Assembly: GCA_046047375.1 (NCBI GenBank)
Contig: JBJOIB010000268.1
Coordinates: 1-35,195, forward strand
Length of the DNA: 35,195 nucleotides
Reading direction: 5' to 3'
Source: Bacteroidota bacterium
GTDB lineage: Bacteria > Bacteroidota > Bacteroidia > Flavobacteriales_D > Sanyastnellaceae
A program made the position numbers and the translations under genes. Every line of letters begins with the position of its first letter. Position 1 is the first letter of the stretch. Under the pieces are notes generated by a model. It ran no database searches. It was not told the DNA's origin and saw nothing but the letters and a program-made list of their open reading frames with translations. Below, one piece after another: positions 4,783-25,478 of the stretch.

Positions 4783-4803
4783 CCTCTAAATCATTCAGAA
4801 ATT

Positions 4804-7800
4804 TTAGCCGCAGGCCTGACCCAACATGCTCAACAGAATAAGCAGGTCTGCTGTATTCACAGCCCCATCGTTGTTCATATCAGCAGCGCCGCAGTTGCTC
4901 GTACATCCCATGTTGGAAAGTAAAATCAACAAATCGGCAGTGTTAACTAACCCATCGTTGTTGAGGTCAGCAAAACAAGCAACTTCTCCCGGACCTATTG
5001 TTCCGTCGCAGTTGTTATCTACCCCATCAGCTGTTGGTGGTGCTCCAGGGTACACCAGTGGATTGGAATCATCACAATCTGAAGAATCCAACACATATCC
5101 TGACTGCACCTGGCACAACTGAACCGGCTCATTCACATCTCCAAACCCATCGCCATCACTATCCAGATAGAAGGTGAATAGCTCTTGTGTAGGATTGAAT
5201 ACATCCGGACAATTGTCTATGTCATCAGGCACGCCATCACCATCCGTATCCAAACCGATGCATTCGAACTGAATGATCAACGGCGACGACTGGTCTGATC
5301 CACAGATGTTTGAAACCACCACGAAAATCTCCCCTGTTTCCAGAGTCACGTTATTGAAGTCCAACCCGATGTTATTCGAATTGTTTCCACTTACAATGGT
5401 GGTACCCGCAGGCAATGTCCATGTGTAATTGGTCGCATTATCAACCGGTTCGAGGTAATAAGCGGCGTCATCCGTGAGCGGACAGATGGTTGTTGCGCCT
5501 GAAATGAGTGAGGTAATCACCGGCGTTTCAAGTACATCTACCATAAATTCAGTTGGCACACTGTAGCAACATGCTTCACTCTCTTGAACGCACAAATACG
5601 TGCCCTCGATAGCTTCAGAAACGTTCGTACGCGTCCATGTAAGCCCACTGAACGATTGTCCGTCAGGTCCGTACCATGTCACAGGGTAGCCCTGATCCAC
5701 AGCGGTCAAAACAAGATTATCGCCACCGCACAAGTCGATTGAAAGATCAACCACTTGCGGAGCTGCAGGCGGGTTGCACATGTTGAATGACGAAGTTCGT
5801 GTGATGCCCCAACGTCCGTCCGCATTTTTAACACGAACAGAAATGAGGTGCTCTCCCGGACTCAATCCTGCGATATCGATATCGTAAGAGGCCGTCACAA
5901 CAGGTGCACTTGGATCAACGATCAATTGTAACGCGTTGCCCGGACCCGGATCAGCGCTGTCGAAGAAGTATTCTCCAACAACGATGTCGGCCGCCGGTTC
6001 TTGCGGAAGCACATCTTCCTCGCTGAGGTACACTCCAAGGAAGGTAGCCATACCCCATTCACCTTGCGCATCTCGCATTCGAACTCCCAGCACGTGATAA
6101 CCTTCTGTGAGTCCAACGGTTGGGATATCAGCAATCGATCCTACCACGTTACCTTGAGTTACCGGAATCGCAATACCATTGCCAACTCCCGGATCGCCGT
6201 TCCAGAAATACTCTCCTGCAAAAACGCCATCGGAAACAATCACATTCGCTACCGAAGCAACTGCAGTGCTTGTACAGGTTCCATCGCTCACCGTAACTTC
6301 ATAGCTACCGGAGCTCAGTGAAGTGATTCCTGCCGTTGTAGCACCTGTACTCCAATCATACGAGTAAACATAGGCGCTTCCACCAGAGGCAATCACAATA
6401 GCGCTACCGTTACCTAAGTTGTTGGTTTCAGCGTTGACAATTATTTCTGCCTGAACGGCAGGATACACAACAACATCAACCGATTCAGACACATACGTAT
6501 TACCGAAAGCATCTTCAAATGAGCAGAAATAGGTGCCCGATGTTTGAACCGAGATTGAATTCGACTGTACTCCGTTATTCCAAATAACATTGGATCCAAC
6601 CGGTGCGGTCAAAATAACCTCACCGCCCTCACAAAAAGTTGTTAAGCCATTTACGTCCAATGCAGTACTTACAGGCTCGCCAATGGTGATTGTAACAACT
6701 TCTATATCGTTGCAATCTCCTCCGTTAGAAACCATCAAGGCTACTTGATACTCTCCCGGTTGAGGGAAGGTGTGAGTAGTTGTGGCTCCAGAAGCGTCAG
6801 CATTGCCGTCACCATCAAAATCCCACCCGAAGGTTGCTTCAGGCAATAAGTTCGATGAAGTACTCACAAAATCCACTACGGTTCCTCCTGCGATGTTCTG
6901 CTGAGCATCGAAAGAAGCTACAGGAACCGCACAAGGCACCTGCTGTACCGTAAAGTATGACGTCCGGGTAACCGACCATTTGTCGTTCAAGTCTTTGGTT
7001 CGCACGTTCAGCCTGTGAACCCCTGGTAACAAGCCTGCTACTTCAATAGCAGCTACTTGTTGCAAATTCACCCCCGGTTGTACAGGAATATCGATTGCCA
7101 TTCCAACACCTGGATCTTGCGCATCGAAGAAATACTCGGCGGCAACAATCGGGAAGGTAGCATCCGGCAAGTTCGACGGAATCGTGATTTCGATAACGAA
7201 GAACGTTGAACGCACAAACCCCCAATGCCCGTTATCATCTTTCATCCGCACATTAATTTTGTGCATGCCAGGTTCTAACCCTGCAGCATCAACAGAGGCC
7301 GTGAAATCGATGTTTGTATCTGGCACTGGCAACTCAAAGCCAAAGCCATTTCCAATCCCTGGATCCTGGTCATCGAAAAAGTACTCCCCGCGTAAGATAT
7401 CCACCGCAGGTGTAGTAACGACTTCTGGATTCTCATCGTCCAAGTAAACAGAAAACGTGCGGGTAATTCCCCAACGTCCGTTCACTTCCTTGGCGCGCAA
7501 TGATAACTGATGATAACCAGCCGTCAGGCCGATGGTCTCAATATTCAAATACGTGTCAATTTCGATGTTCTCAGGAATCAACAGAGGCGTTCCGTTTCCA
7601 ACCCCGGGATCTTCTCCGAAGAAATACTCGGCTTCGACTAACCCAACTATTGGTTCAACGGTTTCGTTAGCAATCACCACAGCTATTGTTTGCGAACAAG
7701 TGCCGTCCGAAATCACAGCTGTGTAATTTCCTGCGGCCACTCCTGCAATAATCGCTGTTTGCTCACCTGAAGACCACTGGATGTCGTAACTGAAGGAGTT

Positions 7801-10800
7801 GCCTCCTGATACGAACAAGGCAGCACTGCCATTCATCAAACCATTCGTTGAAGCTACCACATCGGTTTCAATAGTCATGGCAGGATAAGCCTCCACTTCT
7901 ACTGTTTCAGACACCCATCCAAAGCCATTCGCATCCACAAAATAGCATTGGTAGAATCCAGATTCCGACACTTCAATGGACTGTGTTTGCTCCAGGGTGT
8001 TCCAAACATATCCTGACCCAGCTGGGGCAGTCAATACAACAGAACCCGGAGAACAAAAGGCAAGCGCTCCACTGGCTACAATACTCAGATCGGTGAGCGG
8101 AAGAACATCCACCCATTGCACAATTGAAGTCGTACACGTAATTCCGTTTCCAGCAGTTAACGTTACAGGGTATGTTCCCGGACCGCTAAACGAAGCCGTA
8201 ATTGTAGCCCCTGTTCCATCAACAACGCCATCTCCATCCACATCCCACGTGATTACCCCTCCTGATTCTAAACCTGTGGTTGTAGAAGAAAGGAGAAGTT
8301 GATTTGGACCGATGGTACTCACCGTAAATGATGGCTCTGGAACCGTGCAAGCGGGCTCAACCACATTAAACACATGTGTTCGAGTGATCGACCATTGACC
8401 CCACACATCCAACACACGAATGCTGATGCGGTGCGAGCCGACGCTTAATCCGGTAACATCACATTCGGCAGGGAATTGAACATCCGTGCCTGCCGCTAGC
8501 TGCAATGGAGTAGCATTACCCGGCCCCGGATCATTGTTATCGAAGAAGTATTCAGCTTCTACAATAGGCAAGTGAAAGTCCGGGAGAAGTGGAGGAAGAA
8601 TGTAATCAACCGCAAAAATGGTTGATGCCGTTATACCCCAAGCTCCATCTGCATCCCTAAATCGGAATGAAATGCGGTGCTGTCCGCCAGACAAACCTGT
8701 TGTTGGCACGGGCTCCAGCAATGACAGTGATTCTCCGGCAACAAGCGCAGTAATTGGAATTCCATTACCTGCACCCGGATCGGTTTCATCGAAGAAATAC
8801 TCACCCGCAACAATCTGCAACGCCTGGTAATCAATCACCTCAGCATCAGGATCGTTCACGAAAACATTGTGGGTGCGGGTCATCCCCCATTCGCCCTCTG
8901 CATCCTGAAGACGCACTGAAATGGAGTGAAAACCAGCACTGAATCCCGCTAGGTCTACGTTTATCGGTGCGTTGATTTCTTGTCCCGAAGCCAAGGTAAA
9001 GGCTGTTCCGCTTCCTACGCCTGGATCTGTATCGACGAAATACTCCCCGCGCACTACCCCTTGGAGTGGCGCCACAAGCTCGTTTGCAATAACAAATGGA
9101 ATGTCAACACTACAAATGCCATTGGTCACTTCCACTGAATAGCTTCCAGGCGTAAGCCCCGAAATTCCCGGTGTTGTTTCGCCCGTACTCCAGCTAAAAC
9201 TGTAGCTCGGAAATTCGAACTCATTCCAAACCGGAATCACATTTCCATTTTCGCCATTCACGGCATCTGTGATCGAAAGTGAAACCACTGGCAAAGGGTT
9301 TACTACAATCTCAACAGATGAAGAAATGTAGTCGAAGCCTCCGGAAGTGAGCACACACGAATAAAGACCTGCTTCATTCACTTGAATCGACTGAGTGGTC
9401 TCACCATTGCTCCAAGCATAAGCATCGCTCACCGGGGCAGTTAAGGTGACAAACTCATCTGCACAAATCACAGTTTCACCAGTTACCACCAGCTCAGCAG
9501 GCAAATCGCCCACTTGCACGAGGTCAATGTATGTTGAAAATGCTATGTTCTCTTCATACAAGTCAACAACCTCAGTTACAGATAACTCAGTGTCGAAAAT
9601 GCGCACTTTATCCATCGAGCCTTCTGCCAACGACGCATAGTTAAGCAAGAGTTCATCGGCGAAGATACCCGAGTAAGAAAAAGTTGCGCTGCTGGTTTGA
9701 ACGCCATTCAAATAAGCTTTCGTTTCTCCGGTTGTCCCATTTACGGTGAGTGCAAAGTGTGCCCACGCATTTCCGTTGTACAAGTTAGAGTTACCGGCGT
9801 AAATGCTGTTACCTCCAATTTGGTGGTATCCAGAAACGACACCGCGATAGCCGTTAGCTGGATTAGAACCCAATGACAGCAATGCATACGCATAAGCACC
9901 TTTAAACCAGTAAGATATGGTAAAATCACCTAGCGTTACAGGAGTTGCCGATGCTTCATACATGCCACCATCAAGATCCAAAGCGCCTAGAATATCACCT
10001 TCTTTCCCTGGAGTGAACATTACACCATTCGATCCTGAAAGCGGCGAAAACAAGCCTTGTTCATCTTGTGCAGATGCCTCAAAGAATTCATAATTCACAA
10101 GAGCGTTATCCACCAATGGTGTTTCATCATCCACTACAGTGAGTTTCACCTCATAAATACCCGGCCCTGGAAAGGTGTAGTTGAACGATGATCCGTTGCT
10201 CTCAACAGTTCCATCAGCGAACACATCCCAGCTGTATATAGCGTTTCCAGATGCATTTTGTGAATCACTTGTGAAATTCACTGCAACACCCGGCATTGGG
10301 TTATTTGGTGAGTAGGTAAAGTGTGCAATCAACGGAGACGGATCTTCGTTGCCGTATTGCACTTCCCTCCATTCGGCTAAAGACCATTTCCCGTCTTGCG
10401 ATAAAACACGCATTCCGAGTAAATGGGTTCCTTCAGTCGAAGGGGGTGGTATAGACATTTGTACATCGTTTCCATTCGCTGGGAAATACATCGGAATACC
10501 ATTGCCCGCGCCGGGGTCAGTATCCCAAAAGTATTCTCCTCCTACCAGCGTTAGCACCTGAGGTAACTCAGGAAATGCATACGCGGTAACGTTTACGAAA
10601 AACGATGTCGTCGAGGTCATTCCATAAACGCCAAACTGATCTTTGAATCGAACCGAGAAGGTATGAAATCCCGCTTCGAGTCCTAAGGTTGGACCGTTAA
10701 TGGTAATGTCCACTTGCGAATCAGGCAGTATGGCTATTGGCACTCCTAATCCGGGACCCGGATCATCATCGAAGAAATACTCTCCTTCAATGAGGTTTTG

Positions 10801-10884
10801 TGCCAGTGAGGATATGCTAAGAAGCAGCCCCAATGCAAGCCACAGTGCCCGTCCGAACAGACGATCTGTGAGCTGTTGTTTCAC
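4804..10884 (-). CDS. Giant secreted multi-repeat surface protein (adhesin-like), 2026 aa
   Basis: Signal-like N-terminus (ALWLALGLLLSISSLAQ). Ten ~65-aa (G/A)EYF(F/W)D-x-DPG-x-GNG ... GxWG(I/M)TRT repeats. Three PKD-like domains (e.g. YSWDVFADGT...YEVKLTVVDD). One LamG_3-like domain (FTISYWFKG...KVRIFDTELSVTEVVDLY). Ig-like modules and three SprB-type repeats (e.g. YSYDWSTGATTAGITSLSSGSYEVTVSDGTC). TSP3-like DTDGDGVPDDIDNCPD, a MopE-like CDDSNPLVYPGAPPTADGVDNNCDG motif, and two C-terminal dockerin-like loops. Confidence 0.92.
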   Translation of the reverse strand: MKQQLTDRLFGRALWLALGLLLSISSLAQNLIEGEYFFDDDPGPGLGVPIAILPDSQVDITINGPTLGLEAGFHTFSVRFKDQFGVYGMTSTTSFFVNVTAYAFPELPQVLTLVGGEYFWDTDPGAGNGIPMYFPANGNDVQMSIPPPSTEGTHLLGMRVLSQDGKWSLAEWREVQYGNEDPSPLIAHFTYSPNNPMPGVAVNFTSDSQNASGNAIYSWDVFADGTVESNGSSFNYTFPGPGIYEVKLTVVDDETPLVDNALVNYEFFEASAQDEQGLFSPLSGSNGVMFTPGKEGDILGALDLDGGMYEASATPVTLGDFTISYWFKGAYAYALLSLGSNPANGYRGVVSGYHQIGGNSIYAGNSNLYNGNAWAHFALTVNGTTGETKAYLNGVQTSSATFSYSGIFADELLLNYASLAEGSMDKVRIFDTELSVTEVVDLYEENIAFSTYIDLVQVGDLPAELVVTGETVICADEFVTLTAPVSDAYAWSNGETTQSIQVNEAGLYSCVLTSGGFDYISSSVEIVVNPLPVVSLSITDAVNGENGNVIPVWNEFEFPSYSFSWSTGETTPGISGLTPGSYSVEVTNGICSVDIPFVIANELVAPLQGVVRGEYFVDTDPGVGSGTAFTLASGQEINAPINVDLAGFSAGFHSISVRLQDAEGEWGMTRTHNVFVNDPDAEVIDYQALQIVAGEYFFDETDPGAGNGIPITALVAGESLSLLEPVPTTGLSGGQHRISFRFRDADGAWGITASTIFAVDYILPPLLPDFHLPIVEAEYFFDNNDPGPGNATPLQLAAGTDVQFPAECDVTGLSVGSHRISIRVLDVWGQWSITRTHVFNVVEPACTVPEPSFTVSTIGPNQLLLSSTTTGLESGGVITWDVDGDGVVDGTGATITASFSGPGTYPVTLTAGNGITCTTSIVQWVDVLPLTDLSIVASGALAFCSPGSVVLTAPAGSGYVWNTLEQTQSIEVSESGFYQCYFVDANGFGWVSETVEVEAYPAMTIETDVVASTNGLMNGSAALFVSGGNSFSYDIQWSSGEQTAIIAGVAAGNYTAVISDGTCSQTIAVVIANETVEPIVGLVEAEYFFGEDPGVGNGTPLLIPENIEIDTYLNIETIGLTAGYHQLSLRAKEVNGRWGITRTFSVYLDDENPEVVTTPAVDILRGEYFFDDQDPGIGNGFGFELPVPDTNIDFTASVDAAGLEPGMHKINVRMKDDNGHWGFVRSTFFVIEITIPSNLPDATFPIVAAEYFFDAQDPGVGMAIDIPVQPGVNLQQVAAIEVAGLLPGVHRLNVRTKDLNDKWSVTRTSYFTVQQVPCAVPVASFDAQQNIAGGTVVDFVSTSSNLLPEATFGWDFDGDGNADASGATTTHTFPQPGEYQVALMVSNGGDCNDIEVVTITIGEPVSTALDVNGLTTFCEGGEVILTAPVGSNVIWNNGVQSNSISVQTSGTYFCSFEDAFGNTYVSESVDVVVYPAVQAEIIVNAETNNLGNGSAIVIASGGSAYVYSYDWSTGATTAGITSLSSGSYEVTVSDGTCTSTAVASVANVIVSDGVFAGEYFWNGDPGVGNGIAIPVTQGNVVGSIADIPTVGLTEGYHVLGVRMRDAQGEWGMATFLGVYLSEEDVLPQEPAADIVVGEYFFDSADPGPGNALQLIVDPSAPVVTASYDIDIAGLSPGEHLISVRVKNADGRWGITRTSSFNMCNPPAAPQVVDLSIDLCGGDNLVLTAVDQGYPVTWYGPDGQSFSGLTWTRTNVSEAIEGTYLCVQESEACCYSVPTEFMVDVLETPVITSLISGATTICPLTDDAAYYLEPVDNATNYTWTLPAGTTIVSGNNSNNIGLDFNNVTLETGEIFVVVSNICGSDQSSPLIIQFECIGLDTDGDGVPDDIDNCPDVFNPTQELFTFYLDSDGDGFGDVNEPVQLCQVQSGYVLDSSDCDDSNPLVYPGAPPTADGVDNNCDGTIGPGEVACFADLNNDGLVNTADLLILLSNMGCTSNCGAADMNNDGAVNTADLLILLSMLGQACG
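6247..9051 (-). repeat. Two tandem ~460-aa super-modules inside the giant gene, each [3 x EYFFD repeat]-PKD-Ig-SprB
   Basis: Residues 612-1072 (DNA 7669-9051) and 1084-1546 (DNA 6247-7635) have the same domain order. They are roughly one-third identical at protein level by eye, so this is a diverged coding duplication, not a DNA-level repeat. Confidence 0.8.
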
Positions 10885-12311: not shown

Positions 12312-14519
12312 TTGACAATGTGGGTAAGAAATACCGAACTCCTCAATTGTGTGGTAACGATATTCAACCAAAACACTGATACTTTTTGGTGGTGTGGATA
12401 TGTCATGTTTCTACTTGTGCTCATATTGGCATTACTAGTCTTCTCTATGAAAGCGCGAGACACAAGTTTGCTAGGCAAGCTAAAGCGATACATAGACCCC
12501 TACAAAAATCGCATCGAACAACTGAATGCGGAAATTCAGGATCTCAAGTCCAAAAACAATCAGCTTTCATCAAAGCTTGGTGAATTGTCATCTGCATCCT
12601 TGCAAAAAACAGAAGAAATCGAAGGACAATTCTACCAAACCATGATGCAAAACGTTATTGATACAGCCTTAGACGCTGTCATCATTACGAGCGGAACGTC
12701 TATTGTTATTGAGTGGAATAGACAAGCAGAGGTGATTTTTGGTTACACACGAGAAGAGGCACTAGGCAAAAATCTGGCTGAGCTAATCATCCCCGAAATG
12801 CATCAATCAGCTCATGAAGCAGGTGTGAATCGCTACCATGAAACCAAAAGAGGACCGGTTCTGAATAAACAAATTGAAGTTCCGGCAAAATGCAAGGATG
12901 GAAGTGAAATCCTTATATCCTTGTTTATTACACCCGTTGAAATGAAAGGTGAGATCATCTTTTCCTCTTTCATTCGAAACATCACCCACCAAAAATTCTT
13001 GCAGAAAGAAGTAGAGAAGCAGCAAGAAATCAACTCATCCATCCTGAATGCACTCCCCATTGTTATTTCCCTGAAAAACAGTGAACACAAGTACATTTTC
13101 TCCAACCGCTTTATGCTGGAGCAGATGGGACTTCAACAGGAAGATCTTCTCGGAAAAACAGATTTTGATTTGTATCCCAAAGAACATGCAGATCATACGC
13201 ATCAACAAGACATTGAAATATGGAGCAGTGGACAAACATTGCTCGAAGAGCAACGCATTGAACGAAACGGAAGAACGCAACATTTGCTAAGTGGAAAGTA
13301 CCTCGTAAAACCGTTCGAGGATGATCGTACTAGTCAGTTTCTACTTTCGTTTTGTTTCGACATTACTGAGCAAAAAAGAGCTCAGGAGCAGCTAATAAAA
13401 GCGCTAAAGACGAAAGACGAGTTTCTTTCAACCATGAGCCATGAAATACGTACGCCTTTGCACAGTATTGTGGCTATCAGCGAACTATTGCAAAAGAAGC
13501 AATTCAACGCAGAAGAAGAAGAGCTTGTGAACACTCTCTTTTTCTCATCCAATCACTTACTCGGTCTAATCAATGATATCCTCGATTTCGCGCGGATAAA
13601 CTCGGGGAAGCTTGCCCTTGAAAAACGCCCATTCGATCTGTCTGAACTTTTACAAAAAATCAGTCGCCAATCGGAGATATTGAACAAGCGAAATGTCAAC
13701 TTCACCTTCGAGGGGGTTAACTTACCGGCGGTTCGTGTTCTGGGCGACTCCTTGAGACTCAATCAAGTTTTGAGCAACCTCCTCTCCAATGCCTTCAAGT
13801 TTACGCATCAAGGATTTGTAAAATTGAAAGTTGTAACCACTCCTATAAGCAATCACCGTGTTCGCATAGATTTTTATGTTATTGACTCCGGAATTGGCAT
13901 CAAAGCGAGCAACCTGGAGTTGATCAACGAGGCATTCACGCAAGAAAATAGTTCAATATCGCGCAAGTATGGAGGAACTGGACTCGGTTTGAGCATCGTG
14001 AACAGCCTCTTGAAAATGTGTGGTAGTCAACTCCACATTCAAAGCGAATTTGGCGCCGGTTCAACCTTCAGCTTCACATACGAATTCGAACTGGAGGTTA
14101 AACAAAATGAGCTAAACATCGAAGAAAAAGAACACTCACCAACTGCGGCCATCAAGGTGAAAAGGATTCTTTACGTTGAGGATATGCTCCCTAACCAAAT
14201 GGTAATGGCTGCCATCGTGAAACAACTAGGAATAGATATTTCAATGGCCAACTCTGCAATGGAAGCCCTCGAATTGTGTGCTTCAAATGCGTATGACCTC
14301 ATCCTTATGGACATCCAAATGCCAGAAATTGACGGAACGCAGGCATTGAAAATGCTACATGAAAAATACCCAGAAATAAGACAAATTCCGGCGATTGCTT
14401 TCACCGCCAATGCATCGAAAGAAGAAATAGATTTTTACCTCGGCAACGGTTTTGTGCATGTGCTCACCAAACCCATCACTCCATCAAAATTTACACAATT
14501 CTTAAGTGAAATAAAATGA
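12312..14519 (+). CDS. Hybrid sensor histidine kinase (TM, coiled coil, 2 x PAS, HisKA, HATPase_c, receiver)
   Basis: H-box LSTMSHEIRTPLHS and G-box KYGGTGLGLSIV. The C-terminal receiver has ILYVEDMLPNQ...LILMDIQMPEIDG...LTKP. The true start may be ATG 12405 (MFLLVLILALLVFSM, a TM segment). Confidence 0.9.
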   Translation: MTMWVRNTELLNCVVTIFNQNTDTFWWCGYVMFLLVLILALLVFSMKARDTSLLGKLKRYIDPYKNRIEQLNAEIQDLKSKNNQLSSKLGELSSASLQKTEEIEGQFYQTMMQNVIDTALDAVIITSGTSIVIEWNRQAEVIFGYTREEALGKNLAELIIPEMHQSAHEAGVNRYHETKRGPVLNKQIEVPAKCKDGSEILISLFITPVEMKGEIIFSSFIRNITHQKFLQKEVEKQQEINSSILNALPIVISLKNSEHKYIFSNRFMLEQMGLQQEDLLGKTDFDLYPKEHADHTHQQDIEIWSSGQTLLEEQRIERNGRTQHLLSGKYLVKPFEDDRTSQFLLSFCFDITEQKRAQEQLIKALKTKDEFLSTMSHEIRTPLHSIVAISELLQKKQFNAEEEELVNTLFFSSNHLLGLINDILDFARINSGKLALEKRPFDLSELLQKISRQSEILNKRNVNFTFEGVNLPAVRVLGDSLRLNQVLSNLLSNAFKFTHQGFVKLKVVTTPISNHRVRIDFYVIDSGIGIKASNLELINEAFTQENSSISRKYGGTGLGLSIVNSLLKMCGSQLHIQSEFGAGSTFSFTYEFELEVKQNELNIEEKEHSPTAAIKVKRILYVEDMLPNQMVMAAIVKQLGIDISMANSAMEALELCASNAYDLILMDIQMPEIDGTQALKMLHEKYPEIRQIPAIAFTANASKEEIDFYLGNGFVHVLTKPITPSKFTQFLSEIK

Positions 14520-14860
14520 GCCCATTCAACCTTTCCGAAGAATTAACCATGGACCATTTGGCACGGATTTTTGAAAACCGTACCTCCTTAAAGCAATACC
14601 TCGAAACGTGCAGGTCAGAGTTTGTTAAATGTTTTAAGAAAATAGACTCGTCCATCAACGAAGTCGATTTAAAGTCCTTGGCAGAAAGCAGGCATCGCCT
14701 TTACCCTACCTTGGATTTACTGGGGGTACGGACCCTTTCTCAGGCTTATAAATCGTTCGATACACTGTCTGACGAAAGGCGATCAGCCTTCATTCATGAA
14801 GTAAAAAAAGCACATCAAATCATCATCGATTTCATTGACGACGAGCTTGATCGATTATAG
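14516..14860 (+). CDS. Small Hpt-like (histidine phosphotransfer) protein
   Basis: 114 aa. Its ATG overlaps the kinase stop (ATGA). The sequence is predicted to be all-helical and contains SRHRLYPTLDLLGV, resembling the H-x-L-K-G-x5-LG phosphotransfer motif. Confidence 0.55.
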   Translation: MSPFNLSEELTMDHLARIFENRTSLKQYLETCRSEFVKCFKKIDSSINEVDLKSLAESRHRLYPTLDLLGVRTLSQAYKSFDTLSDERRSAFIHEVKKAHQIIIDFIDDELDRL

Positions 14861-14918
14861 CCGAATTTTGATCGCTACACTTAAATTCGAAATAATTCAT
14901 TAAATTTGCACCCACTTT

Positions 14919-15850
<932 letters not shown>

Positions 15851-15896
15851 ACCCTGTAGCGTGTTTGCACCGAACACACTTAAAAGCGTTAATGCT

Positions 15897-16045
15897 AAAG
15901 GCAGGCCTTCTGACTTGTTCCGTTTCTGCGCCTTCCCGACCAAATGTCAGTGGCTAAGATTGCAGAAACACAAAAGGAACTTACAGCTGCGGGCACAGTT
16001 CCGGACTTATACCGGATTCCCTATTAAACTCTTGCGAGAGCCAAA
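15897..16045 (-). promoter_or_regulatory. Cobalamin (B12) riboswitch
   Basis: The minus-strand RNA reads TTAATAGGGAATCCGGTATAAGTCCGGAACTGTGCCCGCAGCTGTAAG ... GCCACTGACATTTGGTCGGGAAGGCG ... AAGTCAGAAGGCCTGCC. This matches the conserved core and the B12 box (DNA 15900-15915) of the cobalamin riboswitch as seen in the E. coli btuB leader. It lies directly upstream of a TonB-dependent receptor ORF. Confidence 0.85.
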
Positions 16046-16263
16046 AGCAAGGCAAAAGCACACAAAAAAGTAACGGTTGTGCATTGTTTATTCCCAACTA
16101 TACGAAGCCCAAACATTAAACAGTTTGACACCGGATACATGATTCTTAAAGTCAAAACAATACAAGAATCTGTGTTAAGGAATTTGTTCATTCGAATGCA
16201 ACAGAAGGATGCTTGAACCTCCTCAATAAATTGCCTCGAACTACAAGCAATTGTAAAAAAGAA

Positions 16264-19200
16264 TTATTGACAAGTTGTGCCGAAAGCGGAAAGGAAGGAT
16301 AGCAAGTCACCTGAATTTACAACGCCATCGCCGTTTATGTCGCCTTCACAAGAACTCCCTGAATCAAACAAGCAACTTCCATCATCCGAGGTTGCTAAGG
16401 GCGTGTAATTGAGGGCCAACGGATTCATACATCCAGCAAATAGGCAAGATCCATCATCTACAGCTGCATTCCCATTGTAATTTAAAGCCAACGGATAGGT
16501 ACATCCCTCAGAAGGCTGCACACAAGATGAACATGCACCCCAACATACTAGGTCGAGAATAATGTAAGTATCAATGACTTCAACAACACGATTCGTGAAA
16601 GTACCGGTAGATAAGGTGCAGGTATCACCAGGCGTCAGCTCCTCTTGAATGTTCCATGCGTCAGCGGCATATTTGAACTCATAGAAGCCAGGTGCCAGAG
16701 AAATGGTTGCTTCCCACAAGTCACCGCCAACATTGGTCATAGGAGAACATCCTCCACACCAGCCGTTAAAGGTACCGTTTACCTCTGGTGTGGTGAACGA
16801 ATCGCTCACTTGTGACATATCTACGCGAAATACCACATCGTAAAACACTGCTTGGGAATCACATACAGAACAGCTAGCCCAACAAACAGTTCCTAGATCA
16901 AGACTTTGATCTACCACTTGAATCGTGCGATTCGTAAACACGTCAGTAGTAAGGGTGCAGAAATCACCAGGCGTAAGTTCTTCTTGAATGTTCCATGCGT
17001 CCGCAGCATATTTGAACTCATAGTTGCCTGGGGCTAGAGGTATGATCAGTTCCCAAACAGAGCCTCCAATGTTTGTCATCGGCTGACAGCCCCCGCACCA
17101 GCCATTGAAAGTACCATTCACTTCGGGCGTAATAAACGGATCAGTCACCTCTGACATGTCAACTCGGAACACTACATTGAAATAGCAGCTCCCATCGTCA
17201 ATATTGGCTAATGCATTGTAATTGGCTGCGCCGATATTTGTGCATCCATAGGTCGGGCAGTCAGACGTGTTACCAATAAAAAGCCCTACAGGACCGTTTT
17301 GAGCACTTGCAATCAAAGCCAAACCATCTGTGTTACCTATCATGACAACTGGAATGGTAATCAACTCCGCGTATTGCCCTGCTCCCATTTCAAAGGTATC
17401 ATTTCCAATTACGTTGTTCACAACGATGACTGCAACAGCGCCCGCTTGCTGAGCATTGTAGACCTTTTGAGAAAAAGCACAACTACCTCGCTGTATTAAA
17501 GCTACTTTGCCTGTGAGGTCGTTCGAAGGTGAATTGCACCCGAGCGCGGAGCCATCAAAACTATCAACATATACCACTGCTTGAGCCTCTATGTTGTCGT
17601 GATATCCAACAGGCACGGACCACCCCACAGCATTACTATAAGCATAGGTTATGCTCTCAGGCGATTGCATTGCGACTGTCGGTGTCCAACAAGAGGCATC
17701 GCAAGCCTCTAATCCTGTTGTGCCCCCAACGCAAGTGCCACAGCCATCAATGAAAGCATTACCTCCTTCAAGGCCCTGACAGTCGCAATCGAGGTAATCA
17801 ACTACAACTGAATTACTCGTTGCACAAGTTGAACCTGCAATGTCATTCGGGTCACTGTATACCACTCCGGTGATTGTCCACGGACCAGACAACGGAGGAT
17901 AGCCGCTACCTGAAAACAAACCATTCAAATCGCCATTAAAACTCAATGAAAGAGGTACATCAGTGATGTAGGAGGCCTCCCCAAAGCCACCCGACGCTCC
18001 GACGCCAGGTTGAAACAACAAGCCATACAAGTAACCTTCTGGGATATCAGACCCAACTACATCAAATGTGAAATATGCAGAAGCGCAAAGCGAAGTCGTA
18101 CCAGTAGGAATTGACCCTGCGTTGCAAACGACTGGAGGGTTTCCTGCAGTATTGTTCAAGCGACCAATATAATTTCGATTGACAAGGTCAATGAATTGAA
18201 ATTGACCACCTATCACAAGTTTACCGTCTGACTGAATCGAAATAGAATAAACATTGCCTCCTACATTCGACTGAAAGGATGTATCATAACTTCCATCAGA
18301 ATTGAGGCGCAAAATATAGCCAGAAAATGAGCCCGAGAAAAGCACTTGTCCGTCTGCCTGCTGGAGTATATCTGTTACGTTTGTAATTTGAGTAGAGGTA
18401 GCTGGAAGGGCGAAGCCTGTATCCACAACTCCATTCGCCTCCAAACGAGCAATGCGGGTTCTTGGCTCGTTATTTACAGAAGTAAACGAACCAGCTATTA
18501 AGATTTTCGCATCTGACTGAACATCGATTGCCCGCACAAAACTATTGGGACCGCTACCAATATTGAACGTAACATCAAGAAGACCGTTTGAATTTAAGCG
18601 AATTAATCGTGGTACAGAAGTACCGTTATAAGAGGTAAAATTCCCGCCAATGAGCACTTTACCATCGTCTAACAACTTGGCAGCAAAAACCACGTTATTT
18701 GTGCCTGTCCCTACTGCGAAACTCCAGTCTTTCAAGCCAGACTCGGATAGTTTTACCAAGTTCGCACCTCCGTCTCCGTTGTAAGAGCTGAATATTCCGC
18801 CAACAAATAATGAACCGTCTGGAGCAAGTTCAAGAGTCCAAACCTCACCGGTAAATCCTGTTCCTATGGAAAAGGATGTATCTAGAGAACCGTCGGCATT
18901 GAGCTGAGCTATTCTATTCACAGCAACTCCGTTGTACTCAGTAAAATTACCACCGATGATAATTTTGCCATTCGGTCTGACAGCTATTGCACGTACTCTT
19001 TCGTTTGCACCGGTTCCAGTTTGAAAACTATTATCTACAGAACCGTCGGAATTGAGGCGAATGATACCACCGACCGCAGAACCGTTAAATGCAGAGAAAA
19101 TCCCACCGACAAGTATTTTACCGTCAGGTTGAATCTTGGTCGTCTCTACGGTTGAATTGGCCCCAGCACCTGGATCAAACGATGCATCCAAACTGCCATC

Positions 19201-19287
19201 TTGAGCCAATAGTGCTAATGATGAAAATATAAAAGCAAAAACAAACACCTGCGGACGCAGCATTCTTCGAGAATAAAACTTAATCAT
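16264..19287 (-). CDS. Secreted protein: delta-60/DUF5122-type beta-propeller repeats, PA domain, two CBM-like modules, Cys modules and a dockerin-like tail
   Basis: The ORF track gives 16264-19314. The likelier start is ATG 19287 (MIKFYSRRMLRPQVFVFAFIFSSLALLAQ) or 19263. About seven repeats of DGSLD-SF..G.GAN..V..I...DGKILVGG.F..YNG. PA-like TGKVALIQRGSCAFSQKVYNAQQAGAVAVIVVNN. Duplicated FRVDMS...VNGTFNGWCGGC...YEFKYAADAWNIQEEL modules. C-terminal CEGDINGDGVVNSGDLLSFLSAFGTTCQ. Confidence 0.9.
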   Translation of the reverse strand: MIKFYSRRMLRPQVFVFAFIFSSLALLAQDGSLDASFDPGAGANSTVETTKIQPDGKILVGGIFSAFNGSAVGGIIRLNSDGSVDNSFQTGTGANERVRAIAVRPNGKIIIGGNFTEYNGVAVNRIAQLNADGSLDTSFSIGTGFTGEVWTLELAPDGSLFVGGIFSSYNGDGGANLVKLSESGLKDWSFAVGTGTNNVVFAAKLLDDGKVLIGGNFTSYNGTSVPRLIRLNSNGLLDVTFNIGSGPNSFVRAIDVQSDAKILIAGSFTSVNNEPRTRIARLEANGVVDTGFALPATSTQITNVTDILQQADGQVLFSGSFSGYILRLNSDGSYDTSFQSNVGGNVYSISIQSDGKLVIGGQFQFIDLVNRNYIGRLNNTAGNPPVVCNAGSIPTGTTSLCASAYFTFDVVGSDIPEGYLYGLLFQPGVGASGGFGEASYITDVPLSLSFNGDLNGLFSGSGYPPLSGPWTITGVVYSDPNDIAGSTCATSNSVVVDYLDCDCQGLEGGNAFIDGCGTCVGGTTGLEACDASCWTPTVAMQSPESITYAYSNAVGWSVPVGYHDNIEAQAVVYVDSFDGSALGCNSPSNDLTGKVALIQRGSCAFSQKVYNAQQAGAVAVIVVNNVIGNDTFEMGAGQYAELITIPVVMIGNTDGLALIASAQNGPVGLFIGNTSDCPTYGCTNIGAANYNALANIDDGSCYFNVVFRVDMSEVTDPFITPEVNGTFNGWCGGCQPMTNIGGSVWELIIPLAPGNYEFKYAADAWNIQEELTPGDFCTLTTDVFTNRTIQVVDQSLDLGTVCWASCSVCDSQAVFYDVVFRVDMSQVSDSFTTPEVNGTFNGWCGGCSPMTNVGGDLWEATISLAPGFYEFKYAADAWNIQEELTPGDTCTLSTGTFTNRVVEVIDTYIILDLVCWGACSSCVQPSEGCTYPLALNYNGNAAVDDGSCLFAGCMNPLALNYTPLATSDDGSCLFDSGSSCEGDINGDGVVNSGDLLSFLSAFGTTCQ
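16522..17181 (-). repeat. Tandem duplication of a ~108-aa CBM20/48-like beta-sandwich module
   Basis: Residues 712-818 and 824-931 are roughly 70-75% identical by eye. The DNA shows long identical runs, e.g. the segment encoding YEFKYAADAWNIQEELTPGD. Confidence 0.85.
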
Positions 19288-20109
19288 AACATCAATTCTT
19301 AAACACAAATCCACAATCTTGATTTAAAAGAGATCATTCATCAAAAAAAACGTTCAATGAAGCCACCTTAAAACTAAACAAAACCCCGTTTAATCATCAT
19401 TTAATTTAGACGAAACGACATAAAACGTAGATTAAAACAAATACAGCTAACTTCTGATGTATCAAAAAGAGTTTAATCGAACGCTACCTCAGCAAATGTC
19501 AAACAACATTATACATCATCAATAGTGTTAGCCAGCTAAAAAAGTTTCGATTCTCAGTGCGTGCTGAAAAATACAAACCTGTTATTTCTGTCCAACTTTA
19601 AGACACTCAATAAAAATCTTAGATAGAGAAGATCGATTTTATTCCAATGTTTCGAAACGAATGACCGTAAAAAAGTAAAGGTCTCCGCTCGTTTGCAGTG
19701 ACCTTACTCGGGATCGTAATGATAATGATAATCATTCGGAAAGACTGTGCCTATTCCCTTACTGAGAACCTCCAGACTGAGAAAATTGAATTATTCCTTA
19801 ATCTGCTGCATGGTCAGTCTATTTGTGTTTGGTGCTGTTACGGCTATGTTTTCTTGAGTTTAATTTTATGTCTCTTCTTGGCAATCGAATCAGGCTTCTT
19901 CTTCCGCATTGCTGAGGACACAGACCTATTGGGTTTGCCGCTATTAGCTGTTATTTGTAACTTCGTTTTAGTTTACATCACCGAAGTCCGAATCAACGAA
20001 TTAGGTACCCCCAATTAAGATCGGTGAAAGCACTTCCGTTTTTGTTGAGTGCTCTCACGTGGTGGCACAAAACCAATTCAATCCCCTTGGCACTACAGAA
20101 TAACTTTCT

Positions 20110-23369: not shown

Positions 23370-25478
23370 TTAAAAATAACGTATTGCCCTCACACGTCCA
23401 GAAACAAAGCTCTTAGCGAAGTCAATACCTTGTCCGTTTTGAAAATTAATTAGATTGGCACTGTATGCGTTTAATTCGGTAGAAGTCCAGTAATAGTTGG
23501 CTTGAAAGCCTCCCAATCCTTGGGAATGAAGGTTCTGGTACATCTTGACTAAGTCCCAGTATGTTGGCAAGTACCAATCTGAGAATCCTCCAGAAGAATA
23601 ATTCTCACAAAGCCAAGCAGCGATGTTACTTTCGGAACATCCTGCCGTGATTAGAGTTGTATTATTCGCAGCCTGCCCCAAAGTCATGCTTGTAGCGCCT
23701 ATCAGCGTGTTTACACAACCCCAAGTGGCAATTCCAAGATCAGTATTAGAGACTATAATTCCATGCGGCACTGCAGGATCATATCCAGGGTCACCGGGTT
23801 GGAAAAGATATCCCAAAATCCCCCCTCCCAATGGGCTACCGATCGAAATACATGAAACATAATCACACGACTCATTATCATCGGTGGCAGCTGGATTGAA
23901 ATTGCAAGCATTCGAATCGGTACACCCTGCCACTTCCAGCTCATCCGGAACGCCATCACCATCGGCATCGTTTACAGGAGTACCATCGCAATTGAAGTAA
24001 TCTTGTTGGTATTGGCATGAACCATTGTCTTCTGTAGCTTCTTCGCTATAGTTACAAGCTGCAGTATCTGTGCACCCGAGGAATTCAAGCTCATCACAAA
24101 CACCATCTCCATCGGCATCGTTCAAACATGCGCCATTGCAATCCAGAAATTCAGCTGGATAAGCACAATAGCCCAAATCAAAAGTTGCGTTTGGATTGTA
24201 ATTGCAGCCAGCAGGATCCATGCAACCAGCGCCACTGCAATATGATCCGTAAGAAGATAAAAAGCTCAACAAGTCAGCCGAGGTTATTTGTCCATCGTTG
24301 TTCACGTCTCCTTTGCACGTAACAAAACACGACCCATCATCCAAGGTTGCTCCAGGTGTGTAGTTAGCAGCTTCCGTAAAGGTGCAACCAGACACCTCTT
24401 CAAGGTCGCACAAACCGTTGTTATTGAGATCGAGCAGGCAGTTGCCTGCGCAATCGTAGTTGGGTTCGGGGAAGGTACATGAACCGTCGCCCACATTGGC
24501 TTCAGGGTTGTAGTTGCAGGCCGTTGGGTATTCACACCCGTACACTTCCACCTCATCGCACACACCATTGTTGTTGCAGTCATTGAGACAGTTGCCAGCG
24601 CAATCGAGGTTGGGTTCAGCGAACACACACTCACCCCCTTGCCCAAAGTTGCAGGCGGCAGGGTCGGCGCAAGGGGCTACATAGGGTACACCGGTGTAGA
24701 GGGCTGTGATTTCTTCAGGGGTAAGAGCGCGGTTGTAGATGGCGATGTCGTCGATTGCTCCATTGAATGGATCAATCAAATTATTCTGATAATAGCGGGC
24801 TCCAATAGTTGTGTGGTCAAAAACATTACCAATTTGTTGAGGAATATTGTTTGAACAAAACTGGCAGTTGTAATTATTGCTCTGTAAAATAGAATTTAAG
24901 TAAACCTTTTGTCGATTTTCCGAAATACCTTGACTCCCGTCAAAAACAATAACTATGTGATTGAAATCTTGAAAATTCAACTGAGAACTAGAACCTACTG
25001 ATAACCCACCGAGGTAGGCCGTGAAAATATTCCACCCCGAATTATTCCCATAAAAGCCAGTGTAAAAACTTACTGGCGTTCCATATTGAACAGGATTTGA
25101 TTTCCAATTTGCAAAGACTGTTTGGGGAGTTAATTGACCTTGATTAGGAACAAGCCAATACTGAATTGAAAAACTTGTGGAATTTGCTATTTGTCCTGAA
25201 TTAAGTGGTAAATCAATGACGTCATCCACCCCATCAAAACTATATGCCGCATTGGGATTACCATCGCGGTCGTCAGACAACGTCGCCCCATTCACAACCC
25301 CATCATTCCCGTTCCCACTTTCATCATTGGCGTTGCCATTGAACGGCCACCAGCCGACGAGCCCTTCGGTGGGCAGGTAATCGGGCAGTTGGGCCTGGGT
25401 GGTGAGGGGGTTGGCTGCCCATGCGAGCAAAGTAAATACTGCTGCCACGAGCGCGTGTGAAGTTGTTGTTGGCTTCAT
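23370..25478 (-). CDS. Secreted LamG_3 / Cys-module stalk / DUF1566 (Lcl C-terminal-like) protein
   Basis: 702 aa with a signal peptide (AVFTLLAWAANPLTTQAQ). LamG_3 hallmarks (WWPFNGNANDESGNGNDG...IDDIAIYNRALTPEEITALY). Six GC..ACNYN...DDGSC modules, one internal dockerin-like loop, and C-terminal DUF1566-like SDWYLPTYWDLVKMY...YYWTSTE. Confidence 0.9.
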   Translation of the reverse strand: MKPTTTSHALVAAVFTLLAWAANPLTTQAQLPDYLPTEGLVGWWPFNGNANDESGNGNDGVVNGATLSDDRDGNPNAAYSFDGVDDVIDLPLNSGQIANSTSFSIQYWLVPNQGQLTPQTVFANWKSNPVQYGTPVSFYTGFYGNNSGWNIFTAYLGGLSVGSSSQLNFQDFNHIVIVFDGSQGISENRQKVYLNSILQSNNYNCQFCSNNIPQQIGNVFDHTTIGARYYQNNLIDPFNGAIDDIAIYNRALTPEEITALYTGVPYVAPCADPAACNFGQGGECVFAEPNLDCAGNCLNDCNNNGVCDEVEVYGCEYPTACNYNPEANVGDGSCTFPEPNYDCAGNCLLDLNNNGLCDLEEVSGCTFTEAANYTPGATLDDGSCFVTCKGDVNNDGQITSADLLSFLSSYGSYCSGAGCMDPAGCNYNPNATFDLGYCAYPAEFLDCNGACLNDADGDGVCDELEFLGCTDTAACNYSEEATEDNGSCQYQQDYFNCDGTPVNDADGDGVPDELEVAGCTDSNACNFNPAATDDNESCDYVSCISIGSPLGGGILGYLFQPGDPGYDPAVPHGIIVSNTDLGIATWGCVNTLIGATSMTLGQAANNTTLITAGCSESNIAAWLCENYSSGGFSDWYLPTYWDLVKMYQNLHSQGLGGFQANYYWTSTELNAYSANLINFQNGQGIDFAKSFVSGRVRAIRYF

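Follow-up and report, generated by a model that had tools for sequence, protein, structure and literature searches.

The 35,195-nt contig JBJOIB010000268.1 of a Bacteroidota bacterium (Sanyastnellaceae), the whole of which we refer to as the window, encodes three large secreted proteins of 2026, 1016 and 702 residues that carry short Cys-flanked units, each made of a Ca-binding-type loop and a helix. Going by the relatives of these proteins, the organism looks like an uncultured aquatic member of Flavobacteriales. The identity of these units as dockerin modules is solid. Our preferred reading, held with moderate confidence, is that they are cysteine-stapled Ca-binding dockerin modules of the 'GC type', which would serve as protein–protein docking handles at the cell surface and not as secretion signals. 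An initial annotation of the window had suggested a Ca-dependent anchoring or assembly tag; judged from the sequence, this appears to be the most plausible reading, and the NCBI name 'GC-type dockerin domain-anchored protein' concurs.

The units come in two forms. The two-repeat form that ends the 2026-aa protein is of a kind known already (Pfam dockerin, NCBIfam GC-type), of which this doublet is a slightly sub-threshold member. The single units of the other two proteins are a real and recurrent 'half-dockerin' architecture despite their sub-cut-off scores.

The four units of the window and the two-repeat dockerin

A motif scan of the six-frame translation of the window (45.6% G+C) found exactly four units of the form D-x-N-x-DG-x-[VI]-x3-DLL-x2-L, each with Cys on both sides and all on the minus strand, where all the genes relevant here are located (Table 1). 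All four have the predicted Ca-ligand residues at loop positions 1, 3, 5 and 12 (D, N/D, D and D), Gly at position 6 and a hydrophobic residue at position 8. The regular expression of the unit had no match in 300 shuffles of the window DNA and gave 0.003 matches per trial in residue shuffles of the three host proteins; the units, their open reading frames (ORFs) and their coordinates had therefore been described correctly in the initial annotation. Chance or low complexity as the source of the units is ruled out by the absence of matches in shuffled DNA together with the significant hidden Markov model (HMM) and PDB matches given below.

The three hosts are mosaic proteins, and on direct reading the N-termini of all of them look like Sec signal peptides lacking a lipobox Cys. 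According to Pfam, the 2026-aa protein contains PKD, LamG-like, SprB-like, TSP3-like and MopE-like modules, followed by the C-terminal two-repeat dockerin. The 1016-aa protein has a delta-60 repeat beta-propeller, a PA domain, two CBM-like modules, two repeats that we call CNYN-type and the single-unit tail. The 702-aa protein has a LamG-like module, CNYN-type and TSP3-like Cys repeats, the internal single unit and an Lcl_C/DUF1566-like C-terminal domain.

Two tandem loop-helix repeats, as in a type I dockerin and spaced 28 residues apart, make up the end of the 2026-aa protein. This tail matched Pfam Dockerin_1 (PF00404; gathering cut-off 22.9 bits) over profile positions 3–54 of 57, with 29.7 bits for the whole protein and 32.6 bits for the tail. 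Among solved dockerins, the best sequence match of the doublet was 2y3n_B (E=2.8e-8), and it also matched the CelS structures 1daq and 2mte (E ∼1e-5), 1ohz_B and others. Its single-sequence AlphaFold2 (AF2) model had a predicted local distance difference test score (pLDDT) of 33. By its sequence matches the doublet is an ordinary two-repeat dockerin, and not the unusual form that it had been taken for.

The flanking Cys had also been regarded as a departure from known dockerins. This did not hold: NF041540, the GC-type model of NCBIfam, stands for a curated family of C-terminal dockerins that contain Cys, and the doublet aligned with its 67 positions from end to end, from C1 to C4 of the doublet's four Cys (numbered in order), stopping one residue short of the stop codon. 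Dockerins with flanking Cys are therefore on record already. Its score against that model was 22.7 bits for the tail and 17.7 bits for the whole protein, below the curated cut-off of 29 bits, whereas close relatives, Flavobacteriales 4-Cys tails among them, pass it. The relatives above the cut-off include P0153 (34.2 bits; a 4-Cys tail from a Flavobacteriales metagenome-assembled genome), P0145 (43.1 bits) and P0179 (39.6 bits). The full-length alignment below the cut-off, with relatives above it, therefore makes the doublet a divergent member or a sibling of the curated family. Literature searches on 'GC-type dockerin' and 'NF041540' found no paper describing this model.

An exhaustive profile search for relatives returned 13,787 representative proteins at E≤1e-3. 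One of them, P0226, is an ortholog of the 2026-aa protein, 61% identical over 1917 residues, whose cluster is named 'PKD domain-containing protein [Flavobacteriales bacterium]'; it keeps the 4-Cys C-terminal dockerin, which scores 26.1 bits with NF041540, also below the cut-off. The arrangement 'NCDG...C + dockerin' of the 2026-aa tail recurs in the relatives P0222, P0247 and P0270.

Compared with type I dockerins (PF00404; Pseudobacteroides cellulosolvens Cel48 2Y3N_B, C. thermocellum CelS, Xyn10B), the doublet shares the two ∼22-residue repeats, each with a 12-residue Ca loop and a helix, the residues D1, N3, D5 and D12, the small residues at positions 10/11 and the C-terminal place on secreted multidomain proteins. 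It differs in having four conserved Cys, at −3, +21, −3/−4 and +23 relative to the loops, and a very short CxxxC inter-repeat linker instead of the usual helix 2. Moreover, the hosts here are not cellulases, they belong to an aerobic aquatic Bacteroidota lineage, no cohesin was present in the ORFs scanned, and the single-repeat form is without counterpart among solved dockerins.

Which of the four Cys pair with each other was approached by scoring their presence or absence in two-repeat modules from the top 150 representatives, with the genome loci described below as an independent set. All four Cys were present (pattern 1111, in the order C1 C2 C3 C4) in 62 modules of the first set and 26 of the second, the outer two alone (1001) in 46 and 20, and the inner two alone (0110) in 13 and 8; none was present (0000) in 32 modules of the first set, the genome-loci figure for this pattern not being reported. 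Pattern 1100 was not seen in either set, and 0011 was called once among the representatives, where the module was mis-grouped, and twice among the loci, where the calls reflect a different Cys scheme or are not real. In both data sets, therefore, the outer pair was found without the inner and the inner without the outer, but a genuine one-repeat pair was never found alone, which implies C1–C4 and C2–C3 pairs. These statistics, which are of presence and absence and not of a structure, point to an outer C1–C4 and an inner C2–C3 disulfide in the doublet. One disulfide per repeat was rejected as the likeliest pairing, given the absence of 1100 and the three 0011 calls that are artefacts or follow a different scheme. 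In the dockerin fold (1OHZ, 1DAQ), helices 1 and 3 are antiparallel, so that the start of repeat 1 adjoins the end of repeat 2, and for this reason C1–C4 pairing fits the fold. The initial annotation was right that Cys flank every unit, but a mini-domain closed by a disulfide within each repeat is not the best reading of the doublet, where the patterns imply the pairing across repeats.

Among 68 4-Cys modules, C1 was at −3 in 66, C2 at +21 in 44, C3 at −3/−4 in all 68 and C4 at +23 in 51, and the registers of the window units agree with those of this wider family. Another Cys scheme was seen in the two-repeat C-terminal dockerins of five ORFs of Bacterium HR15 (locus L021), in which position 7 of the first loop is Cys ('DVNGDGC') and the sequence ends in 'GxGC'.

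Table 1. Dockerin-type units, their host proteins and adjoining Cys-rich motifs in the window
Feature	Position (nt)	Strand	Basis or remark
2026-aa secreted multidomain protein, ending in a two-repeat dockerin	4804–10884	minus	ORF; Pfam domains
Dockerin repeat 1, CFADLNNDGLVNTADLLILLSNMGC; C1 at −3 of the loop, C2 at +21	4903–4977	minus	Within Dockerin_1 match, residues 1973–2019
Dockerin repeat 2, CGAADMNNDGAVNTADLLILLSMLGQAC; C3 at −4, C4 at +23	4810–4893	minus	Dockerin_1 32.6 bits on the tail
Terminal Gly and TAA after C4 of the 2026-aa protein	4807–4809 (Gly), 4804–4806 (TAA)	minus	
MopE-like Cys/Asp metal-binding motif, directly upstream of the dockerin	4996–5079	minus	PF11617 40.4 bits, cut-off 27
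1016-aa secreted protein with single-unit tail	16264–19314	minus	ORF, Pfam, NCBIfam
Single Cys-bracketed unit ('half-dockerin') CEGDINGDGVVNSGDLLSFLSAFGTTC; Cys at −3 and +23, then Gln, TAA	16270–16350	minus	
702-aa secreted protein with internal single unit	23370–25478	minus	ORF, Pfam, NCBIfam
Internal single Cys-bracketed unit CKGDVNNDGQITSADLLSFLSSYGSYC; Cys at −3 and +23, 288 residues after	24237–24317	minus	
CNYN-type repeats	16351–16506 (1016-aa protein); 24015–24224 and elsewhere in 23370–25478 (702-aa protein); partial ORF 1–1006	minus	

Single-repeat units

The single units are half of a canonical dockerin: neither the copy in the 1016-aa protein nor that in the 702-aa protein has a second unit within 60 residues. 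When Dockerin_1 was run on these proteins, as the initial annotation had advised, the doublet lay above the gathering cut-off and the single units below it, at 18.6 bits (1016-aa) and 18.8 bits (702-aa), over profile positions 1–16 only. With NF041540, the unit of the 1016-aa protein matched half of the model (19.4 bits, positions 30–67 only) and the other had no match.

With the last 90 residues of the 1016-aa protein as query we obtained 101 proteins; some 50 of these, all metagenomic, end in at least one 'GC[TM]xPxAxNYxxxAxxDDGSC' repeat, one bracketed unit and 0–3 further residues. In 39 aligned single-unit tails, 42–60% identical to that of the window, both bracketing Cys and the loop residues D1 and D12 are invariant; the units also conserve an amphipathic helix with the motif DLLxFLxxFG. 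Using the 39-sequence alignment, AF2 modelled the single-unit tail with a mean pLDDT of 87.4 and a helix at residues 47–55 (SGDLLSFLS). The top Foldseek matches of this model in the PDB were dockerin repeats (root-mean-square deviation 0.3–1.6 Å over 20–23 columns, E>1), matches that are not significant because they are so short. With the single-unit profile, matches were obtained to EF-hand 4 of calmodulin as well as to each of the two 2y3n_B repeats. Thus the profile, PDB sequence and AF2/Foldseek matches bear out the view that the units are Ca loops of the dockerin/EF-hand type followed by a helix.

We also scanned species-representative genomes with the pattern C[PE]xDINGDG and obtained 286 confirmed matches; the figures for loci refer to the best 80 loci. 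These come mostly from uncultured Flavobacteriales, including Crocinitomicaceae and Cryomorpha, and also from Phycisphaerales, Isosphaeraceae and Planctomycetaceae. In them the C-terminus is a single bracketed unit in 55 ORFs and a multi-unit module in 60, and several loci hold 3–5 tagged proteins. Flavobacteriales-type tagged genes were also seen in bins of unrelated taxa (L004 and L042, Comamonadaceae; L017, Methanobacteriota; L078, Nitrosopumilus), contigs that are probably mis-binned.

We compared 114 distinct single units: 110 have the N-side Cys at −3, 104 have the C-side Cys at +23, and in 99 no more than 4 residues come after the last Cys. These registers are those of C1 and C4 of the doublets, not that of C2 (+21). 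Among all ORFs of the 83 sequences examined, the copy in the 702-aa protein is the only internal and truly single bracketed unit. The extreme C-terminal position noted in the initial annotation was accordingly found for the 2026-aa and 1016-aa proteins, but not for the 702-aa copy, and some proteins combine dockerin arrays with the C-terminal domain (CTD) of the type IX secretion system (T9SS). The single-repeat tail is widespread at protein C-termini in uncultured aquatic Flavobacteriales, below the cut-offs of both curated models. Our literature searches found no description of such a tail, with one repeat and Cys at −3 and +23.

One conserved subfamily of single units, ending in '...CPDFNGDGQVQAQDLLDFLLAWGTTY' (minus-strand ORFs of L006, L008, L010, L011, L012 and L014), departs from the invariant Cys pair: it keeps the N-side Cys and has no C-side Cys. 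Five of its six members end in Tyr-TAA and that of L006 in Tyr-TGA, with a terminator-like hairpin after all of them. Because the tails weakly match the C-terminal end of an NCBIfam model, 'Omp28-related selenoprotein', and because of certain genes in locus L001, we considered selenocysteine in place of the last Cys. We rejected it, since most tails without the last Cys stop at TAA, with a terminator-like hairpin behind it. The L001 genes in question, selU-like (Rhodanese + AAA_SelU) and selD-like (AIRS), adjoin tagged genes at 14046–16169.

The single-unit tails are preceded by a tandem Cys-bracketed repeat of ∼24–30 residues, 'GC[TM]xPxAxN[YF]xxxAxxDDGSC', the CNYN-type repeat of Table 1. 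It has no Pfam or NCBIfam match and is abundant in Flavobacteriales metagenomic proteins; its AF2 model has a pLDDT of ∼90 and short beta bridges. At residues ∼290–540 of the 702-aa protein it alternates with Cys-containing TSP3-like Ca-binding repeats, e.g. 'NDADGDGVCDELEFLGC', and the C-terminus of this protein resembles the Lcl_C/DUF1566 adhesin domain at 26.2 bits (cut-off 34.9). In L001, a giant CNYN-repeat gene ending in a single unit (4790–10453) is split into three overlapping or adjacent ORFs, which suggests that the repeats contain frameshifts or were misassembled.

Docking, self-pairing or sorting

If the modules are docking handles, the following course may be pictured. After Sec export, the module would fold around Ca2+ and would then be locked by its disulfides; in the doublet, C1–C4 would tie together the ends of the module and C2–C3 would close the short CxxxC linker. 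The module would hold large adhesin- or enzyme-like proteins in an assembly at the cell surface by way of a cohesin-like or other partner encoded elsewhere, and would not itself be a secretion signal.

Several results weigh against docking. No cohesin was found in the window ORFs scanned (eleven complete ones and two partial ones at the ends; two histidine kinases, a sigma factor, DapF and small ORFs were outside the scan), in keeping with the initial annotation, in which no cohesin-like partner had been recognised. None was found by jackhmmer in 82 related loci (∼1.2 Mb) either, a weak search whose only queries were the two cohesins of P0107, a Bacteroidota protein that combines two cohesins, a dockerin and a T9SS CTD; a database search with the same two queries gave no matches. 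Both single units miss the cut-offs of Dockerin_1 and NF041540, and the doublet misses that of NF041540. The copy in the 702-aa protein is internal, amid other Ca-binding Cys repeats, and fits a purely structural module. The disulfide pairing comes from presence/absence statistics and not from a structure, and the binding of Ca and of a partner is only predicted. Finally, the docking reading does not account for how a Sec-exported protein that is no lipoprotein and has no CTD would cross the outer membrane.

When the genes beside the tagged ones were examined for an enriched partner or processing enzyme, nothing stood out but TonB-dependent receptors and housekeeping genes in conserved synteny. 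In L006 (3517–7239) and its orthologs, which are the Flavobacteriales loci checked, a gene for such a receptor directly follows the tagged gene on its downstream side. Receptors of the L006 family are present at some place in 16 loci, two of them from Phycisphaeraceae (∼27–31% identity). In the window, a 325-aa ORF (14966–15943) has weak similarity to the receptor plug domain and may be a fragment.

Dockerins on non-cellulolytic proteins have precedents. For freshwater Phycisphaerae, a non-cellulosomal cohesin–dockerin assembly, the 'planctosome', has been proposed, which includes reprolysin-type peptidases (Andrei et al. 2019, PMC6461901) and is itself a hypothesis. It resembles the present case in its dockerin-tagged non-cellulolytic proteins of aquatic bacteria; a tagged reprolysin is found in L001 too, and Phycisphaerales genomes carry a 2-Cys version of this tail. 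However, the planctosome model has cohesin-bearing adaptor or anchor proteins, none of which was found here, and no single-repeat units. The dockerin–cohesin pairs of Clostridium perfringens glycoside hydrolases (2JNK/2OZN) likewise have dockerins on non-cellulolytic secreted proteins, with a weak sequence match (E=0.008); they are Gram-positive and without Cys, and their cohesin partner is known.

The single units might offer a way of docking without a cohesin. A single unit keeps exactly C1 (−3) and C4 (+23). Given these registers and the exposed hydrophobic face of the helix, it has two options: to close on itself, or to pair antiparallel with another unit by two intermolecular disulfides. 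The latter would mean that half-dockerins pair in trans to form an antiparallel two-helix module with two intermolecular disulfides between the N-side Cys of one unit and the C-side Cys of the other, so that the proteins become covalently dimerised or networked. In the dockerin fold (1OHZ, 1DAQ), C1 adjoins the end of the other helix and not of its own. This general structural knowledge is in favour of pairing in trans, as are the co-occurrence of C1 and C4 in doublets without C2 and C3, hence their mutual pairing, and the fact that single units keep these two registers and not the +21 of C2. The conserved hydrophobic face LLxFLxxF would need a packing surface, and there are often several single-unit genes per locus (two in the window, four each in L043 and L072). 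On the other hand, AF2 predicts a confident monomeric loop-helix, intramolecular closure of the 27-residue loop is geometrically possible, and the helix sequences differ between single units within one locus. On balance we regard pairing in trans as rather unlikely. Its most specific version, in which the single-repeat tail is a self-complementing half-dockerin whose antiparallel pair binds two Ca2+, is closed by two intermolecular Cys(−3)–Cys(+23) disulfides and cross-links surface proteins with no cohesin, is decidedly doubtful. Should half-dockerins pair with themselves, large surface proteins would be cross-linked to each other or to T9SS-anchored poly-dockerin proteins, and proteins without a T9SS signal might reach the surface attached to such partners.

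A further rival to docking is that the tail is a sorting signal of a not-yet-known pathway of outer-membrane export or attachment, a substitute for the T9SS CTD with dedicated machinery and perhaps cleavage. Large secreted Bacteroidota proteins also carry T9SS CTDs of type A or B at the extreme C-terminus. The two kinds of tail alternate in the delta-60 family, but they are unrelated in fold (a beta-sandwich of 70–100 aa in the CTDs, a loop-helix of 27–57 aa here), and there was no HMM match. The initial annotation had recognised no T9SS CTD in the three proteins and had called for HMM searches of their C-termini. Our searches agree with it: neither type A (TIGR04183/PF18962) nor type B (TIGR04131/PF13585) gave a match at E≤10 in the C-termini with the NCBIfam and Pfam models, although the speed filters of HMMER may hide very weak matches. 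A home-made CTD HMM run with --max gave no C-terminal match in any of the three, and only weak internal matches in the 2026-aa protein. The same CTD HMMs did recognise CTDs encoded by neighbouring genes in related loci. A hidden T9SS CTD was accordingly rejected for all three proteins.

Sorting would agree with the strict C-terminal placement, with 0–4 residues past the last Cys in 99 of the 114 single units. The 1016-aa protein has its homologs among the delta-60 repeat proteins of Bacteroidota. Many of these homologs end in PF18962, and within this family the dockerin-like tail stands where a T9SS CTD often stands. A 'choice-of-anchor Q' domain lies just ahead of such a tail in P0153 and P0275. 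In addition, no ORF of the examined loci has both a C-terminal bracketed unit and a T9SS CTD: the home-made CTD HMM found 33 CTD-bearing ORFs in 16 tag-bearing loci, none with a C-terminal bracketed unit as well. Against sorting, the module is homologous to binding modules and to no known sorting domain. Cellulosomal dockerins are typically C-terminal too, yet they are not sorting signals. The copy in the 702-aa protein is internal, and no conserved candidate machinery gene was found beside the tagged genes, TonB-dependent receptors aside. Moreover, P0130, P0147 and P0155 carry such dockerins together with a T9SS CTD. We consider the sorting reading quite improbable.

The two kinds of tail also coexist. 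The proteins P0130, P0147 and P0155 are small and secreted, with tandem GC-type dockerins almost throughout followed by a T9SS type A CTD; in the first two, both the dockerin and the CTD models score above their cut-offs. Arrays of the domain modelled by NF041540 occur on T9SS-CTD proteins as well, and, anchored at the surface, they could be docking sites for tagged proteins. Another small secreted protein made almost wholly of tandem GC-type dockerins was seen in L080 (9494–10087). On the proteorhodopsin-bearing 853-kb scaffold of L001, one cluster contains the gene of a reprolysin with a 4-Cys doublet as its tail, that of a giant repeat protein whose tail is a single unit, and a gene with a TIGR04183 CTD (26.8 bits, cut-off 23). 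Hence, the suggestion that the tail takes the place of T9SS was right in that the three proteins have no CTD, but T9SS-tailed genes adjoin tagged genes in related genomes. Because a genome, and in some cases a single protein, may have both kinds of tail, the tag is an alternative tail and not a replacement of T9SS. The module is displayed by T9SS in some proteins and is terminal in others that lack a CTD, which suits docking more than a role in secretion. P0107, with its cohesins, dockerin and T9SS CTD, also counts in favour of docking.

Loop positions 10 and 11 and the helix of canonical dockerins recognise cohesin. It is very improbable that the units are partnerless Ca2+-dependent stabilisers, Cys-bracketed mini-modules of mosaic extracellular proteins: this would suit the internal 702-aa unit between CNYN-type and TSP3-like Cys/Asp repeats, the proteins made almost wholly of such units, the absence of cohesin from the scanned window ORFs and, with two query cohesins, from the related loci, and the disulfide-dependent Ca-binding TSP3 repeats of bacterial OmpA (Dai et al. 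2017, as cited in a preprint), but not the strong bias to the extreme C-terminus, the conserved amphipathic helix with small residues at loop positions 10 and 11, or the retention of the tail between 61%-identical orthologs.

Significance for surface proteins of Flavobacteriales

A Ca-dependent, disulfide-locked docking or dimerisation tag of 27 residues would be of interest for protein engineering.

In seawater and lakes, uncultured Flavobacteriales play a major part in breaking down algal and particulate organic matter. How these bacteria hold large adhesins and enzymes at their surface has, to our knowledge, been worked out for little else than T9SS-tailed proteins. A second widespread C-terminal tail, the Cys-stapled dockerin with its single-repeat derivative, would define a further class of surface or secreted proteins, and the derivative is missed at the current Pfam and NCBIfam cut-offs. 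It raises the question of whether these genomes encode an unrecognised cohesin-like receptor, or whether the dockerin halves pair with one another.

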